Part shown: positions 4,773 to 52,959 of the stretch, one piece after another
Position numbering within the stretch: the first letter of the stretch is position 1
Layout of the letters: the number at the start of each line of letters is the position of its first letter
From: Candidatus Heimdallarchaeota archaeon
GTDB taxonomy: Archaea > Asgardarchaeota > Heimdallarchaeia > Hodarchaeales > Hodarchaeaceae
Assembly: GCA_048881705.1 (NCBI GenBank)
Contig: JBHLSH010000014.1
Span: forward strand, 1 to 55,563
Direction of reading: 5' to 3'
Length of the DNA: 55,563 bases
Made by a program: the position numbers and the translations under genes
The notes under the pieces: generated by a model
Told to the model about the DNA's origin: nothing
Seen by the model: the letters and a program-made list of their open reading frames with translations, nothing else
The model's database searches: none

Positions 4773-6311
4773 TCATAAGATCTCCGGAGAAACCCATTGA
4801 TTGTTTTGCGCATCAAACCAGTCAATACTGTGAGGCACGTTGGTGTAATAGCTTATAATGGGATGGACTTTCCAATTTAGAGTCTCCTTAATCCAGTGGA
4901 GTAGGGGGGAGTTTAAGCGGGCCAGTACCAAAATAGAATCAGGTGTATAATAGATCCGACCAAATGGTAGAAGATTGAGAAAACGTTGCAATAGAAGGAA
5001 AGACATAGGAGGGACATGAATAGCATACAAATCGAGGGAAAACTCACTTAGCAGATGCCAAGGGACAAAGAAAGGGGTCATCACACCATTGAAATACAAT
5101 TGCTTAATCAATCCCATTTCCGCTCTGGTCAGCTGCGATGCAGGATCATATCTAGATAGAGTAGGAAGGGATGAGAACCCATAAGTTGCAGGAATCTTGC
5201 AATAAAGGGTGATAATTTGGTACTGGAGGGGATGCTGAGTATAATCCCAACTCGTATTAAACGGGCGGGGGATGAAAAGGGAACGAGGTTTCACTTGGGG
5301 GCCAATAAGTTCCTTCGATGTTAGTTCCGAGGTTAAGCGATTTAGCAATGTTGAGGGGGGGTCACTCCATCCAGATTTCGGGCGATAAAGGAAGAATGAG
5401 GCACTTCTTTGCGTGTTGCTGATTTGGGACAGCTCACCAATTGAGAGACTGCCTTTCTTTTCCTCACGGTAAAAAAACGTCATTATGGTTTCAATGTCTC
5501 GGCTAGGGACTACCAAGAGTCCCAAATAGCTATTTGGTTGGTCGTTAACACGAAAAACCTCACTAGCCATAAGTGTAGAATTTTTCGCATCAGATAGGTC
5601 TATAACTGATGTCAATTGAGTAGAGAGTTTTAACTGGAACACTACAAATAGCCAATCTAGCCCAAAAGCGGGAGTAAAAAAATGGAAAAACCAGCGCCCG
5701 TCTATCAAGGAAAAAAGACGCGTTAGTTCTTGTGTAACACTCACTCCGGAAGGAAATGTGGCTCGCTCTGCCAAATACTCCGATAGACGGTTACCATCCA
5801 TCGCCAAGATTCCAGATTCAGCAATAGAAGAATATACAGCTTCAAGGATACGTAATTGGTCATCTGTAAGAAATATAAGCTGTTTATTGCTTTCATACTG
5901 CAATTTTTCCCAAGCAGGATCCCCTAACGGTATAGCATTCCGAGTCAACTGAAAAATTCCCTTTATTGGAGGTGCCCCTCTGAGTGTCCGTAAAAGATAA
6001 CCATAAAATTCAGTGGCATGATATTTAAGGCTATTTTGAAGAAGAAGGTGAGCATTTTTTAGAAAAGTTTCAGCAAACCAGTAATATGGAGTTGCTAGAT
6101 ATGATTTCGAGGCTCGAATTTCGAGACGAAGATCCAGCATTCTTTGTGCAAGCTGTTTTCGGTTGAAATCAGCCTCTCTATAATATTCGAGAACATGGAG
6201 AAGTTTCTCTAAAACCAGTCTATCCGTGGGTGGATAATGGTCAAAATTCCTTGGGAGGTGAGCTAAAACGGTTTGGAGCGATTGTTGCAGATTTTCCCGA
6301 ACACGCGCCAA
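4773..6311 (-). CDS. Asgard-type tandem Lrp/AsnC-like (wHTH + RAM-like, duplicated) protein, 512 aa
   Basis: Lrp-like helix starts LTDDQLRIL and LTRAEMGLI. FFTPAFGL resembles the Lrp DxxKLG[LY] hinge. C-terminal FDAQNNQW. TTG start with GGAG 9 nt upstream and TTTATAA further upstream. Same size class and layout as 47849..49372. Confidence 0.55.
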   Translation of the reverse strand: MARVRENLQQSLQTVLAHLPRNFDHYPPTDRLVLEKLLHVLEYYREADFNRKQLAQRMLDLRLEIRASKSYLATPYYWFAETFLKNAHLLLQNSLKYHATEFYGYLLRTLRGAPPIKGIFQLTRNAIPLGDPAWEKLQYESNKQLIFLTDDQLRILEAVYSSIAESGILAMDGNRLSEYLAERATFPSGVSVTQELTRLFSLIDGRWFFHFFTPAFGLDWLFVVFQLKLSTQLTSVIDLSDAKNSTLMASEVFRVNDQPNSYLGLLVVPSRDIETIMTFFYREEKKGSLSIGELSQISNTQRSASFFLYRPKSGWSDPPSTLLNRLTSELTSKELIGPQVKPRSLFIPRPFNTSWDYTQHPLQYQIITLYCKIPATYGFSSLPTLSRYDPASQLTRAEMGLIKQLYFNGVMTPFFVPWHLLSEFSLDLYAIHVPPMSFLLLQRFLNLLPFGRIYYTPDSILVLARLNSPLLHWIKETLNWKVHPIISYYTNVPHSIDWFDAQNNQWVSPEIL

Positions 6312-45503: not shown

Positions 45504-45974
45504 CTACTGGTTTTCTGTTGATATCTGTTGGTAAAAGCGATAGACAACCACCAAACTTACTATTGTCCCTGCAAAACTAATGAAAAATCCTAAAAGCCAT
45601 AGATTAAGGAGCATCGTGAATACTGCGAGAATTAGGACATTGCTTAGAAAAAATAGTAAGAAGAAAACATTAGGAACTAACCTATTCCCCACGAAATAAT
45701 GCTTCATTACCACCCTCAAAGGAATACTTTTCATTCTCTCATATTTTTCAACTAACTTGTATTTGTTCCCTTCAACTTGCTCAATGGCCTCATTTTCCAG
45801 TAATTTCTGGAGATGCCAATGAGTACTCCCCACGCTATTGATATTGAGATTTCTTTGAATCTCACGGACTCCTAAAGGCCTATTTTCCGTCTTCAAGTGT
45901 AAAAAAATGGAGGTGATGAGTCTATTGCTCAGAAAATCCTCCATCTTTTTTTCATCCTTAATCAATCGGTCCAT
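45504..45974 (-). CDS. wHTH transcriptional regulator with C-terminal TM helices
   Basis: LGVREIQRNLNINSVGSTHWHLQKL HTH followed by two hydrophobic helices. Confidence 0.72.
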   Translation of the reverse strand: MDRLIKDEKKMEDFLSNRLITSIFLHLKTENRPLGVREIQRNLNINSVGSTHWHLQKLLENEAIEQVEGNKYKLVEKYERMKSIPLRVVMKHYFVGNRLVPNVFFLLFFLSNVLILAVFTMLLNLWLLGFFISFAGTIVSLVVVYRFYQQISTENQ

Positions 45975-47198: not shown

Positions 47199-47624
47199 GT
47201 TTCTCTCTCCTCATGAATCCTCGGTACCCCCCGAGGTACCTAGGGTGAATTCTCTGTCTGATTTTCCCCTCAAATACTCTATATAGGAATATTTCCGTTT
47301 ATCTTGTGTGTAATTAAATCTAGTATCCCACCAGCCAAATATGGGTTGAGATTTCATGACCATACCCCATTTGCCAGATCGAAAGCAGTTTTTTTTTCAT
47401 TATATATAAATCCACGATCTAAATAATGGGACAGACACCAAATATCAATATAGAGAAATAATAGATTAAGCTGATACATTGATCTTCTTTTTCACATAAC
47501 GCGGCCCACGCCAGCTGTTAATCAAAAAAATGTGGCTTATTCTGCGATTCCTTCTCCAAACAGGATTTATCAACATAAACCGATGATAAAACCAATATAA
47601 AATCTCTGTGGGTTGTTATATCAA

Positions 47625-47737
47625 GTGGGGGTGGAAGGGTGACCTCAAAGCAATGCTCTGAAAGTAGGTTCCCCGTCCACTCCTGTGGTGGTGGCGTTTC
47701 CTGCACGAAGTGAGAACCAGGGTTTAAACCTGTCACT
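47625..47737 (-). ncRNA. Candidate small structured transcript A; a short ORF is also possible
   Basis: Begins about 20 nt after TTATAT in repeat copy A. The long hairpin at 47631-47680 has a G-U pair on the minus strand where the plus strand has an A-C mismatch. Confidence 0.3.
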
Positions 47738-47788
47738 GTTTCCTAGAATACCCTCCATATAAGCTCCGATGCCCCATTTTTTGGTTAA
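47729..47788 (-). repeat. ~60-bp operator/TATA module, copy A
   Basis: Minus strand TTAACCAAAAAATGGGG-catcg-GAGCTTATAT-N19-AGTGACAGG. Matches 49555-49615. Confidence 0.85.
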
Positions 47789-47848
47789 TAGCAGTAATCT
47801 TTGGGCATGATATCAGGTGCTATTGGGGATACCATAAGGGAATAGGGA

Positions 47849-49372
47849 ATGTCGATCTCAAGGTATGCGCAGAGGTCTCGAAAGGGTGTTTTTTTGCAGG
47901 ATATGAGGTCCATTCTTCGTCAACTTCGCCATCCTTCGGGACCGGTCTCGAACATCCTTGTAGATCCATTTGTTCTAGATTTCTGCCAGTTTTGGGCTGA
48001 TATTTATGATCTAGTGCAACAAGAACGGATCCCCAAGATTTCTAAGACGGCAACCCTGACACGGTTGTTTCGAGACACACATACTCTTCCCTTTTACGAG
48101 AAATACAAAGCTTATGACTTCGTTGAGTGCTTCCCCGCATATTGGGATAGATTAGGTGCCATCTGTTTTCAATGGAAGGAGGGCTGGATCGCATTCCCCC
48201 TCCGGCTCATCACCTACGAGCTAGCTTATCCTCAGGAAAACCTGGTCAAAACCTACCTTCACCATCTTGCTACAGGCACCCTTCCTGGAGATCGTGAGAC
48301 CTTGTTTGCCTTTCTATTCCCGCGCCTTTACCAGTTCGCTCTTCCTCTCTCGGAATATGACGTAACTCTATTGAAAGGCTTTCAAATGGTCTTTGATCGG
48401 TGTGCGAATTTCTTCCGAGGACCAACCATAAAAGAATTCGTGACTCATCTTCCACATGTGACACCAGAGACGATTCGGAACAAGCTTGAGCATTTTCAGT
48501 TTTTTCAACTCGCAATTGACATGTTTTTTCCAGATATGGGGAAACTGGGATATGAAACCTATTTAATATCTCACGTCCGCTCCATCCCCGCTGAGCTGGA
48601 TCCGTATCGCCTATCGACAGTTAATTTTGGCCCAGAAAATCTTTCCCTTCTCCAGCTTCCCACTTCATCTTCAACTCTTTTTGCTCAGCTCCAGATTTTT
48701 ATTGAGCAGAATTCCCCTCCAGTTGCAATAATAGAACCGCTCACCTGGCGAACTCATTCATGGAATTTGACCTCCTTGACTGGGGGGAACCCCTATTGGG
48801 AACCTCCCGTGGAATTTTTTTACGGTGACTTACATACCGCTCCCAGTGTCTCTCCGCCTACCTTGGACATATCTGTTGTTCCTATGTTTGATCCTTTTCG
48901 TCCTTTAACTCCTGCTGATTTGAAATTATTAGGGTTCCTAACTACTGTCGGAAATACAATACGGATTAAAGATATATGTACGCAGCTGCAACTTCACCAT
49001 AAGACTGTCGTACAACTCATGGCAGAATATTGGGAGCACCAGCTACTCCACCGTGTTGTTCAGTTCTTTAATATTGGGCTCGATCTTACGGCATCACTGT
49101 ATCTTGATGTCCCTCGGGGGTCAGAATCCTTCCCGTTCCTTCAACAATGTTTGACCTTACCCCGAATTGACATGTTTCTCATAGAGGGTAAGACCTCTAC
49201 TACTTATTACGGTCACATTGATATACCAAGTATTTGGGTCAAGGATTTTGTGACTCGAATGCGGACGATTCGGGACGCTTTCCCAGATATCACTCTTCAT
49301 TATACGTTCGAACCACCTTCCCCTGCAAAGTGGAATCTATCCCTTCCACAGACCTATTCACATTTCGTTTAA
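47849..49372 (+). CDS. Asgard-type tandem Lrp/AsnC-like protein, 507 aa
   Basis: Two Lrp-like units: LSEYDVTLL...TPETIRNKLEHF...PDMGKLGY and LTPADLKLL...IKDICTQLQLHHKTVVQLM...FNIGLD. N-terminal extension of about 165 aa. Confidence 0.65.
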   Translation: MSISRYAQRSRKGVFLQDMRSILRQLRHPSGPVSNILVDPFVLDFCQFWADIYDLVQQERIPKISKTATLTRLFRDTHTLPFYEKYKAYDFVECFPAYWDRLGAICFQWKEGWIAFPLRLITYELAYPQENLVKTYLHHLATGTLPGDRETLFAFLFPRLYQFALPLSEYDVTLLKGFQMVFDRCANFFRGPTIKEFVTHLPHVTPETIRNKLEHFQFFQLAIDMFFPDMGKLGYETYLISHVRSIPAELDPYRLSTVNFGPENLSLLQLPTSSSTLFAQLQIFIEQNSPPVAIIEPLTWRTHSWNLTSLTGGNPYWEPPVEFFYGDLHTAPSVSPPTLDISVVPMFDPFRPLTPADLKLLGFLTTVGNTIRIKDICTQLQLHHKTVVQLMAEYWEHQLLHRVVQFFNIGLDLTASLYLDVPRGSESFPFLQQCLTLPRIDMFLIEGKTSTTYYGHIDIPSIWVKDFVTRMRTIRDAFPDITLHYTFEPPSPAKWNLSLPQTYSHFV

Positions 49373-49386
49373 TGCATACTTCTACT

Positions 49387-49563
49387 AAAAAAAGGGTGGA
49401 GAGCGAAAGCTCCCCACCACCTGCCAACACGATGCCCCCGGGGTGGCAGGGTTGGGTGAGACTAGGGATCGAGTTACTTCGCTCCAGATCTTAACCCTCT
49501 CCGAAGCGAGGCCAACCAATAGAGGAGGGGAGATCCCGAGGAAGTCATACTTTCCCTGTCACT
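49387..49563 (-). ncRNA. Candidate small structured transcript B (~175 nt), convergent on the 507-aa gene
   Basis: Follows TTATAT in repeat copy B. Contains a C(UUCG)G hairpin (49496-49511), a CCTGCCA/TGGCAGG stem (49420-49450) and a terminal 10-bp stem (49395-49418) with a U7 tract. Confidence 0.42.
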
Positions 49564-49615
49564 TTTCCCTAGATCCTACTTCAATATAAGCTCAAAGTCC
49601 CCATTTTTTGGTTAA
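49555..49615 (-). repeat. ~60-bp operator/TATA module, copy B
   Basis: Minus strand TTAACCAAAAAATGGGG-acttt-GAGCTTATAT-N20-AGTGACAGG. Shares identical 17-, 10- and 9-nt blocks plus CTAGG with copy A. Confidence 0.85.
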
Positions 49616-49788
49616 AAGAAGAACAATTTTTCTAGATTATCCTCCATCTCCAAATGCAGCCAATGGTGCAATGACATTCTACGATTATTGTTTAGCGGAG
49701 ATCGCACGAGGTATTGGATATTTCCTGGAGATACAATTTAACAGGTTTGTGTCCTCTCTAGATGAGTGATTGGAAGAATCGGTCATCC

Positions 49789-50745
49789 TCATCTCATTAA
49801 TCTCAAAAAATTCTGCCCATAAATCTTCTGTAATATCTTGGGAGCTAATTTGAGCCCTGAAAAATGTATCCCAAACGGGGCATCAGGGTCATCAAAAGGT
49901 AACTTGGTCTTCAAGGAAGTCTCCCAGAAAATTCTATGAGACCAAAAACGAGTGGCAAAGTACTCAGGATTCATTGGCGCCTCTGTTACATGGAGATCGG
50001 TTCCAAAGATGATCCTATCTTGATATTTTGTGATAAATTCAGTCGTTTGCCCATTGTTTTTTCCCAGCTCCCTTATCATCCATCGTGTCGATGCTGTATT
50101 AATATACAAGCCAGGATGATTGTCTAGAATTTTCCCCAATTCCGGCAAATTTTCCGGCCAACATCCGAAATGAGTAGCAAAGAATTTGATCTTAGGATAC
50201 CTTTTTTGAATTGTTAAAAAACGCCTAATGTGATCTATCTTTTGCCCGTATTTTTTGAGGTTCTGATAATGAAACAAATACCATAGATCTGGATCCGCGA
50301 TATGGGCACTAATTATATACCGATAATCTTCGAAACGTGAGAATACCGCTTCAAGCCTGTCATCTAATAAGTCGAATGGCCCATTTAGCTCGTTAAAATC
50401 TAAAAATCTTGGTGCTAACCACAATTTAAAGACTTCCACTCCATCCGAATAAGCCTGATCAATTTGCTTGAGTAATTCGGAGGTATTGTATTCTCCTAGG
50501 TTTTTGGTTGATAAAAATTGAGCAACGGTTGTTTTTTCTCGATACTCCTCAGGAATTTTGACGATCATCTCTGGGAGCATCATAGAAACAACAGAATAGT
50601 CATTAAAAAAGATATTAGCCCATTTGAAGAAAAAAGGAATTAATTTTTCGTTCCAAAAGTGTAGATGGGTATCTACAACGGGATTAACCCATGCATCTAA
50701 TCCATTTAGAGGATTTTGTAACGAAAACATTGGTTGATATGACAA
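49789..50745 (-). CDS. Amidohydrolase family protein (amidohydro_2-like)
   Basis: Metal-binding motifs VDTHLHF, AHIAD, THFG and IIFGTD. Confidence 0.85.
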   Translation of the reverse strand: MSYQPMFSLQNPLNGLDAWVNPVVDTHLHFWNEKLIPFFFKWANIFFNDYSVVSMMLPEMIVKIPEEYREKTTVAQFLSTKNLGEYNTSELLKQIDQAYSDGVEVFKLWLAPRFLDFNELNGPFDLLDDRLEAVFSRFEDYRYIISAHIADPDLWYLFHYQNLKKYGQKIDHIRRFLTIQKRYPKIKFFATHFGCWPENLPELGKILDNHPGLYINTASTRWMIRELGKNNGQTTEFITKYQDRIIFGTDLHVTEAPMNPEYFATRFWSHRIFWETSLKTKLPFDDPDAPFGIHFSGLKLAPKILQKIYGQNFLRLMR

Positions 50746-52383: not shown

Positions 52384-52959
52384 TCAATGGGAAATGAGGA
52401 GTGATGGTTTTCGAATTCCTATAAAGTTCATTACGTTCTCGCCAAGTAGTGCGAACGCTTGCGGGATGTTAACTCCTGTTTTTGCGGACGTTTCAATATA
52501 TGGACAGGTAAACCCCTGAGATTCAGTGAGCTTGCTCAGATTTTCTGAGAATAGCCAGCCATCTTGAGCGGAGATTGTTGAATCTGAAAGGGCCCGCATA
52601 TCGATCTTGTTAGCAACTACAACGAGAGGTACTCTACCTCGGCCATTGTTTATCCAGAGCTCATTGATCCACTTTGGTGAATTGTAAAAAGATTCAGGAC
52701 GAGTAACATCGTAAACCAATAGTCCCCCCACACAGCCCTGGTAATAAACTTCTCTTACAGAATCGAATCGGTTTTGTCCTGCCAAGTCCCAAATCTGGTA
52801 TCGGATTGGAACACCCCTTAGGGTATCGTCGTACATGGCAAAGTCGGCGCCAACCGTTAAATTATATTGTGTTGAAAATCCTCTTCCCAAAAAACGTTCA
52901 CGGATGGATGTTTTACCTACTCCACCGTCGCCTATTAATGCAATTTTATATACTGTCAT
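52384..52959 (-). CDS. Rab-like small GTPase (eukaryotic signature protein)
   Basis: G1 GDGGVGKT, G2 TVGADF, G3 WDLAGQ, RFDSVREVYYQG, G4 NKID and G5 ETSAKTG. No C-terminal cysteine. Confidence 0.92.
   Translation of the reverse strand: MTVYKIALIGDGGVGKTSIRERFLGRGFSTQYNLTVGADFAMYDDTLRGVPIRYQIWDLAGQNRFDSVREVYYQGCVGGLLVYDVTRPESFYNSPKWINELWINNGRGRVPLVVVANKIDMRALSDSTISAQDGWLFSENLSKLTESQGFTCPYIETSAKTGVNIPQAFALLGENVMNFIGIRKPSLLISH

Follow-up and report, generated by a model that had tools for sequence, protein, structure and literature searches.

In the window analyzed here, the whole 55,563-nucleotide (nt) stretch of contig JBHLSH010000014.1 from a Candidatus Heimdallarchaeota archaeon, the gene for a 507-amino-acid (aa) tandem Lrp/AsnC-like protein, P0001, lies between two copies of a ~70-nt direct repeat. 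We consider it somewhat probable that these repeats are the promoter modules of paired paralogous genes that encode a structured small RNA specific to this lineage, in two forms here called RNA A and RNA B, and that RNA A occupies the slot held at other loci of the same protein family by a mini-protein gene. The unit is real, undescribed, and very narrowly distributed, being found in two sister species only. To our knowledge, very few regulatory RNAs, and no circuits linking a transcription factor to a small RNA (sRNA), have been described in Asgard archaea. The elements are as follows.

47725–47795, minus strand: putative promoter module A, with the 17-mer at 47772–47788, GAGCTTATAT at 47757–47766, TCTAGG at ~47742–47747, and the predicted start in AGTGACAGG at 47729–47737.
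49551–49622, minus strand: putative promoter module B, with the 17-mer at 49599–49615, GAGCTTATAT at 49584–49593, TCTAGG, and the predicted start in AGTGACAGG at 49555–49563.
47849–49372, plus strand: P0001, the 507-aa tandem Lrp/AsnC-like protein, from profile and fold searches.
49386–49563, minus strand: RNA B, a predicted structured transcript of ~178 nt, from its fold, terminator-like site, conservation, and paralogue C.
47596–47737, minus strand: RNA A, a candidate small structured RNA with a conserved core at 47625–47737 (~113 nt), from conservation and indels.

The direct repeat was evident in the sequence itself, to a repeat finder, and in pairwise alignment. In these analyses the two copies spanned 47729–47794 and 49555–49621, with a spacing of 1826–1827 bp. 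As the original prediction had it, three blocks are identical between the copies and keep a fixed spacing: the 17-mer TTAACCAAAAAATGGGG, GAGCTTATAT (the GAGC-TTATAT region, also given as GAGCTTATA), and AGTGACAGG (the start-region element GTGACAGG). An additional conserved box, TCTAGG-AA, lies between the TATA box and the predicted start. Overall the copies are 79–83% alike, and the 17-mer of copy B matches that of copy A at 17 of 17 positions although the intervening spacers have diverged. The module blocks are unchanged across four copies (A and B, in this genome and in the sister species), and over all five copies the 17-mer is the best-kept element, varying at its central base (A, A, C, G, G) and by one G-to-T change in the fifth copy, C. 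The CCA-A5-TGG palindrome that had been described ahead of TTATAT stands in part: both its arms, CCA-N5-TGG, and the TTATAT box were found, but with arms of 3 nt the palindrome is weak. Within the module, the spacers of each copy cluster with those of its orthologue in the other species, and the A/B duplication therefore predates the species split.

A BLAST search of copy A against the whole genome recovered copy B (E 3e-8), and a genome-wide search for the motif, run with an nhmmer profile of the module over the 3.96-Mb genome at E<0.5, returned copies A and B and nothing beyond them. We also scanned 83 genomes of the class with a 24-position pattern, allowing up to three mismatches; the reversed control gave 0 matches. 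The pattern occurred in two genomes, with two copies in the genome under study (G000) and three in that of one sister species (G001). The module was absent from all other genus genomes scanned, by a sequence-only model and by the pattern, and a metagenome scan with the pattern gave no match. The repeat is real and rare; five copies, confined to two of the 83 genomes, are too few for a common promoter motif.

The modules are supported as archaeal-type promoters on the minus strand. Their TATA order is TT-first and preceded by purines (GGAGC or TGAGC), which resembles the tRNA promoters of this genome. Eight pairs of the predicted RNAs use G-U in some sequence, and such pairing is possible on the minus strand only. 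Together with the U-tracts, which come after the hairpins when the minus strand is read, the G-U pairs and the tRNA-promoter-like TATA context place the predicted transcription units on that strand. Archaeal TATA boxes usually lie ~26 nt from the start site; with the TATA center of module A near 47759/60, this spacing predicts a start at 47733–47737, and at the equivalent 49559–49563 for module B. The 17-mer lies ~35–52 nt upstream of the predicted start, a position at which archaeal activators such as Ptr2 bind, and we infer that it is a factor-binding site that would co-regulate all copies. Module A is divergent from the P0001 gene, with 60 nt between the end of its 17-mer and the ATG at 47849, and module B is convergent with that gene, both as first described. 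It was likewise correct that neither module leads to a recognizable protein gene. That the modules head small RNAs is supported in the sense of predicted non-coding structured units on the minus strand.

Both modules lead into segments rich in G+C. Downstream of module B, the predicted RNA B begins with helix P1 (49554–49562 paired with 49456–49467), continues into a three-helix arm, P2–P4, and then into P5 (49420–49450, loop GGGGGCAUCGUG). It would end at a minus-strand terminator-like site, a 10-bp hairpin at 49395–49418 followed by U7 at 49387–49393, which lies 14 nt from the stop codon of the 507-aa gene. Its fold scores z −3.05 against shuffles, and its sequence is 88.8% identical to that of the sister species.

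The strongest argument for the RNA comes from the third copy. The sequence-only module model detected a third module in the sister species at G001:C14:87547-87611 (E 5e-7), and a covariance model of RNA B matched the adjoining 181 nt, G001:C14:87377-87557, over its full length (41 bits, E 3e-7). This RNA C is about half identical to RNA B, and its helices P1–P6 lie at the same coordinates with different sequences, as in P4 and P5.

P4: RNA B CCCACUCC/GGAGUGGG; RNA C CACUACUC/GAGUGGUG.
P5: RNA B CCUGCCA/UGGCAGG; RNA C CCCUACCC/GGGUAGGG.

Both RNAs keep the P5 loop GGGGGCAUCGUG and the terminator hairpin with its U-run. In a pairing test on three sequences, with an alignment fitted to the structural model, 96.3% of cells were paired, versus 42–58% when partners were slid, and six pairs had changed on both sides. 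None of 500 shuffles equaled the observed pairing of the B/C alignment. By these comparisons, the predicted RNAs B and C are shown to form a small structured-RNA family with a common fold and compensatory changes. Each would qualify as a structured small RNA gene: promoter, terminator, conservation, absence of a conserved open reading frame (ORF), and compensated fold are all found in the sequence. RNA C adjoins a caspase-tetratricopeptide repeat (TPR) gene, and the region around it matches G000 in neither DNA nor protein. The RNA unit thus needs no neighboring Lrp-like gene, and the original view of a self-contained system is weakened by this unlinked copy. The G001-specific island around RNA C (L102, G001:C14:84000-91500) encodes the caspase (Peptidase_C14)-TPR protein, two ORFs without an assigned family, and a 348-aa protein with a signal peptide and a C-terminal anchor; no L102 protein matches G000.

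RNA A, a candidate of ~113–140 nt, is predicted to fold into a 5′ hairpin (GUGACAGG / CCUGGUUCUCAC) and a long 3′ hairpin ending in CCACCCCC, with U-runs at ~47598–47601 and 47585–47588. Its predicted start lies ~110 nt from the regulator ATG, and its core is 92.9% identical to that of the sister species. Three 1-nt indels relative to the sister break every frame, and a GTG-initiated ORF of 72 aa here is 30 aa there; the indels and the premature stop in the sister's frame argue that RNA A is non-coding. Conservation and non-coding indels are the two marks of a structured RNA that it bears. A covariance model of RNA A found the orthologue in the sister species and no other match, and hence no paralogues for covariation. 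RNA A has the module and the P1 stem in common with RNA B (GUGACAGG...CCUGGUUCUCAC versus GUGACAGGG...CCCUAGUCUCAC) and lacks the P2–P4 arm. It may be a shortened paralogue of RNA B. The motifs by which the two downstream segments had been likened, TGGTT..CTC[AG]CTTCG and GCCACC, do occur in both, but at non-equivalent places in the two folds; the common element that matters is the 5′ stem GUGACAGG(G)...CC(C)U.GU(U)CUCAC. The description of both segments as hairpin-rich suits RNA B well and RNA A weakly.

Neither RNA resembles a described class in the searches made. Rfam 15 gave no match at the gathering score over the whole window; over 47300–49900, at E up to 10, it gave a chance U6atac fragment inside a coding sequence (CDS) and nothing else. 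A tRNA/tmRNA search found none, and no C/D-box, H/ACA, K-turn, or bulge-helix-bulge was seen by eye in the folds. BLAST of RNAs A and B across the genus returned the G001 orthologues only, as a scan of genome contigs returned the G001 record only. A target search with the conserved loop GGGGGCAUCGU found two exact genomic complements, which is chance level.

The sister species has the same architecture at this locus, and the two genomes allow conservation to be read along it. Module B is 91.8% identical and module A 86.7%, and the flanking CDSs are 84–89% identical. Neighboring spacers as wholes are 72–81% identical, the spacer beyond module B is 60–75% identical, and the least conserved 60-nt windows of the spacer at 49616–49788 fall to 60–67%. 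Because their identity exceeds that of the neighboring spacer, the modules and the predicted transcripts are under selection. The amidohydrolase flank and the entire neighborhood are restricted to the two sister species. In G001 the interval from module A to the gene is 183 bp longer, a difference traced to a scaffold gap (100 N) plus a duplicated edge and not to biology. Separately, the ~50 nt past module B (49616–49670) are well conserved before identity falls to 60%; on the minus strand this segment holds a T-rich run that may terminate the amidohydrolase gene.

P0001 combines a mostly helical N-terminal extension of ~165 aa with two units, at ~169–305 and ~355–486, each predicted to consist of a winged helix-turn-helix (wHTH) and a RAM domain. 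Its tandem-Lrp label has no backing from Pfam, which gives no hit even at E 10, yet profile and fold searches support it. A profile of 26 family members matches AsnC/Lrp structures over ~330–465 and again over ~172–237; against 3i4p it reaches E 1e-4 and covers 4–146 of 162, and PH0061 matches the first unit. The profile aligns ~330–420 and ~172–237 to the helix-turn-helix (HTH) regions of Lrp (E 1e-4 to 6e-3), and 8 of the 26 members hit HTH_AsnC-type (PF13404) or HTH_24 (PF13412). An AsnC-type HTH is thus found at the family level, and for P0001 by profile or fold alone. The AlphaFold2 (AF2) model (pLDDT 86, pTM 0.80) places a beta-alpha-beta-beta-alpha-beta fold after each HTH, at ~235–305 and ~413–486, and the RAM domain following the HTH is found by this model, by Foldseek, and by the 3i4p profile. 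The top Foldseek match is the fused NirDL (E 2e-6), with many Lrp regulators next; full-length alignments were obtained with LrpC 2cfx (TMt 0.63), ST1022, and PH1519. Together, the model and searches support a fused double Lrp/AsnC architecture for this putative DNA-binding protein.

A role as a NirDL/AhbAB siroheme decarboxylase was considered and is unlikely, with no haem/siroheme pathway genes nearby and up to 11 family copies per genome. NirDL/AhbAB (PDB 4czc, 4ch7) is likewise a single chain with two Lrp/AsnC-like units, which align over 347 columns, but the identity is 8–9% and the TM score 0.37–0.58. The P0001 family is genus-restricted, multi-copy, and endowed with HTH_AsnC hits, which fits regulators rather than an enzyme. 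It occurs in 21 of 21 other genus genomes and in 0 of 19 outside the genus, and its copies often stand in arrays. Other members carry the labels Hodarchaeales or Heimdallarchaeota; one homologue, P0003 (JGI), is 82% identical to P0001. A metagenome scan with the family protein alignment gave no match, and neither did a scan of viral contigs.

The neighbors of P0001 encode VKOR, an amidohydrolase, an M29 peptidase, a PPDK-like protein, and a Ras-like GTPase. Close by are a Ras/Roc-type small GTPase (52384–52959, minus strand) and a TFIIE-beta-like winged-helix protein (45504–45974, minus strand), both of types typical of Asgard archaea. The genome has, in addition, a TBP gene and a 16S gene of archaeal type. 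Another gene in the window, for a protein of ~512 aa (4773–6311, minus strand) that had also been labeled tandem-Lrp when first described, has no Pfam hit and no detectable profile similarity to the P0001 family (hhalign probability 0.2). Several family members elsewhere adjoin a conserved four-gene cassette of three small proteins (~92–110, ~101–110, and ~151–159 aa, no Pfam) and, at its end, a stand-alone receiver-domain protein (PF00072). Examples are at L080 (G000:C5:70000-78000), 1128-2657; L076, 7707-9492; and L077, 6494-7543; the orientation relative to the regulator varies.

The other loci of the family give the position of RNA A its meaning. At 20 of the 22 examined, an ORF of 43–79 codons (~50) lies on the opposite strand, 60–160 nt from the regulator start. 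Its predicted product runs from a basic N-terminus through a single hydrophobic helix to a short Gly/Pro tail, and would be membrane-targeted or exported. A hidden Markov model (HMM) of this mini-protein detects one beside the C5 paralogue of this genome (E 7e-20) and finds no match anywhere on the window's contig, where RNA A sits in the divergent slot that the mini-protein gene normally holds. The mini-protein promoters have a TATA box and, within a few bases, CTAGAGAAA-N3-TCCG. Their CTAG density is 8.7 per kb versus 2.65 genome-wide, with the box present at 18 of 21 loci, and the module has TCTAGG(G)AAA at the matching position. In one paralogue group, CCGAAAAGAAGGG lies ~22 nt upstream of the TATA box, where the module has ACCAAAAAATGGGG. 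These resemblances offer indirect evidence that the module may descend from, or have converged on, the family's partner promoter; equally indirect is the evidence that the regulator may act on its divergent neighbor.

Comparison of flanks across paralogues yielded no module at the 22 other family loci examined; the additional module and RNA emerged in the sister species beside the caspase-TPR gene. No G+C-rich flanks were found at the closest homologues (44–48% identity), the one case, at L016, being a mini-protein ORF. For the P0001 subfamily, no convergent Pro/Gly-rich micro-gene was found downstream of family members. Compared by blastx with the mini-proteins, the RNA regions gave a best E of 0.58.

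Several other small ORFs were noted. In G000, C40:7155-7376 (plus strand) holds a mini-protein homologue (E 7e-10) with no family regulator beside it by HMM, and C49:4897-5097 (minus strand) holds a weak one (E 0.28), divergent from the distant family member C49:5229-6707. In the window, a 41-codon ORF at 47354–47479 (minus strand) has a basic-then-hydrophobic start (..KRRS MYQLNLLFLYIDIWCL) and a weak likeness to the mini-proteins (blastx E 1.7); the sister does not keep its frame intact. The ORF may be what decay has left of the lost partner gene, or the likeness may be due to chance. A 50-codon ORF at 47211–47363 (minus strand; MVMKSQPIFGWWDTRF...), just upstream of VKOR, is in frame in the sister with a GTG start, its N-terminal half being well conserved (KSQPIFGWWD.RF.YTQD). 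It may be a small protein co-transcribed with VKOR from the TTTATATATAA box at ~47396–47406. About 20 nt before the VKOR start, at 47219–47240, lies a near-perfect palindromic hairpin, GGTACCTCGG GG GGTACCGAGG, which is kept in the sister.

These observations suggest how the locus may be organized and may have arisen. Each module would read, on the minus strand, as the 17-mer, GAGC-TTATAT, TCTAGG, and a start in GTGACAGG, with U-tracts downstream at both units, and RNAs A and B would be made from the predicted starts. RNA A would have taken the slot of the mini-protein gene in this lineage. The promoter and RNA would have been copied as one unit, with B placed downstream of the gene and, in the sister species, C at another site. 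Whether the adjacent tandem-Lrp protein is the factor that controls the RNA promoters is a more tentative matter; we hold it plausible but less likely than not. The link rests on adjacency and analogy because the third copy, the 22 other family loci examined, and the other genus genomes lack the pairing of module and regulator. A bolder scheme seems to us improbable: that the RNA replaced an exported mini-peptide as partner of a receptor-type tandem-Lrp regulator in a closed circuit. The protein would control the 17-mer/CTAG promoters, and the RNAs would target its regulon or the protein itself, for which they could be decoys or effectors. If true, a peptide-linked cassette would have given rise to a transcription-factor/sRNA module in an archaeon.

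Several points weigh against reading the locus as paired RNA genes with a candidate regulator. The 17-mer is poorly palindromic, P0001 has no Pfam HTH hit and has the enzyme NirDL as its best fold match, and the third copy has no adjoining Lrp-like gene. Neither the module nor bracketing repeats were found at any of the 22 other family loci examined. On the RNA side, the comparison comprises two sister species and one paralogue, and the covariance-model alignment is fitted to the structure. Folding energies are also uneven: RNA A folds weakly better than shuffles (z −1.7 to −1.9) and the minimum free energy of RNA C has z −1.2. The plus strand of RNA B folds as well (z −3.4), so energy alone leaves the strand unfixed.

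It is conceivable, though somewhat unlikely, that the RNA genes are real but answer to another factor or to none, and that their place beside the tandem-Lrp gene is incidental, the product of local duplication in a variable region. The third copy speaks for this: its neighbor is a caspase-TPR gene, G000 lacks the island in which it lies, and no family member adjoins it. The neighborhood is moreover specific to the two sister species, so that conserved adjacency weighs little. Yet RNA A matches, in place and in distance from the ATG (~110 nt), the divergent partner of 20 of the 22 other loci examined, and the module and the partner promoters both have a post-TATA CTAG box. We think it unlikely that the modules are instead bidirectional promoters, with a shared TATA box also firing on the plus strand, the 17-mer serving there as a proximal or start region or as an operator, and the minus-strand RNAs secondary. 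On the plus strand, copy A would then serve the tandem-Lrp gene and copy C the caspase-TPR gene, and a protein gene does begin 60–110 nt past the 17-mer at both. The 17-mer and GTGACAGG/TCTAGG are also roughly symmetric, 12–28 nt either side of the TATA center. One paralogue group has a single TATA box that lies ~27 nt from the ATG of the Lrp gene and looks toward the mini-protein gene as well; CCGAAAAGAAGGG stands at the corresponding position. Copy B, however, has no plus-strand gene to serve: a plus-strand transcript from it would enter the 3′ end of the amidohydrolase in antisense. Its 17-mer nevertheless agrees with that of A at all 17 positions. Moreover, the plus-strand sequence 5′ of the TATA box is pyrimidine-rich, unlike local promoters, and it is the minus-strand segments that are under selection, with a covarying fold in common.

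Two further explanations had been raised by the original prediction. That the segments encode micropeptides is now disfavored, and we regard it as very improbable. RNA B does contain a 24-aa ORF whose AUG lies 15 nt past the predicted start; its first 16 codons specify the same residues in both species with two third-position changes, and its stop position is kept. Those same two changes are accounted for by RNA pairing, however, and the codons further on carry non-synonymous changes. In paralogue C, the ORF at the corresponding place specifies an unrelated 42-aa product though the fold is kept, and this unrelatedness of the ORFs in B and C places the constraint on the RNA rather than on a peptide. 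In RNA A, the GTG-initiated ORF changes length between species through 1-nt indels, as described above, and blastx against the mini-proteins did no better than the value already given. That the repeats are the ends (att sites or terminal direct repeats) of an 1826-bp mobile unit carrying the 507-aa gene has found no support and is extremely unlikely. Direct repeats do bracket one gene of a multi-copy family, but copies that are 79–83% alike, with conserved blocks at fixed spacing and no single identical core, do not look like such ends. The A/B duplication is older than speciation, with the same architecture in both species; comparison of the two found no empty site for the unit. No recombinase or transposase was found, 0 of 22 other family loci are bracketed by repeats, and the third copy stands alone with its RNA, each copy having promoter features and an RNA under selection.

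On the reading that we favor, of two RNA genes flanking a tandem-Lrp gene, the locus is a compact unit: a 70-bp module with three invariant boxes, two to three structured RNA paralogues, and a candidate regulator adjacent. It would also mean that, in an expanded family of Asgard tandem-Lrp proteins, an RNA gene can fill the partner slot, which bears on what the family senses or controls. The closest relatives in arrangement are bacterial. In E. coli, OxyR-OxyS and GcvA-GcvB each consist of a regulator that activates an adjacent, divergently transcribed sRNA. Here too a regulator gene stands head-to-head with a small structured RNA gene that has, by prediction, its own promoter, an upstream factor site, and a terminator. 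The differences are that the promoter is of the archaeal TATA type, the protein is Lrp-like and not LysR-type, and the RNA has two to three paralogues, one of them convergent; the system is also known from sequence alone. Archaeal Lrp/AsnC regulators (feast/famine regulatory proteins, FFRP) such as Ptr2, LysM, Ss-LrpB, and LrpA act at sites beside the factor B recognition element (BRE) and TATA box. With them (structures 3i4p, 2dbb, 2cfx, 7fby), the locus shares the predicted wHTH and RAM units and an A-rich element with short inverted arms upstream of the TATA box. The module has in addition a second conserved box between the TATA box and the start, its 17-mer is weakly palindromic, and P0001, a putative DNA-binding protein, consists of two fused units and the ~165-aa N-terminal extension. 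Also close in setting are the mini-protein cassettes of the same family and genus, which likewise have a divergent small transcription unit 60–160 nt from the regulator start. Here, by contrast, the partner would be a non-coding structured RNA, under a different, duplicated promoter module.

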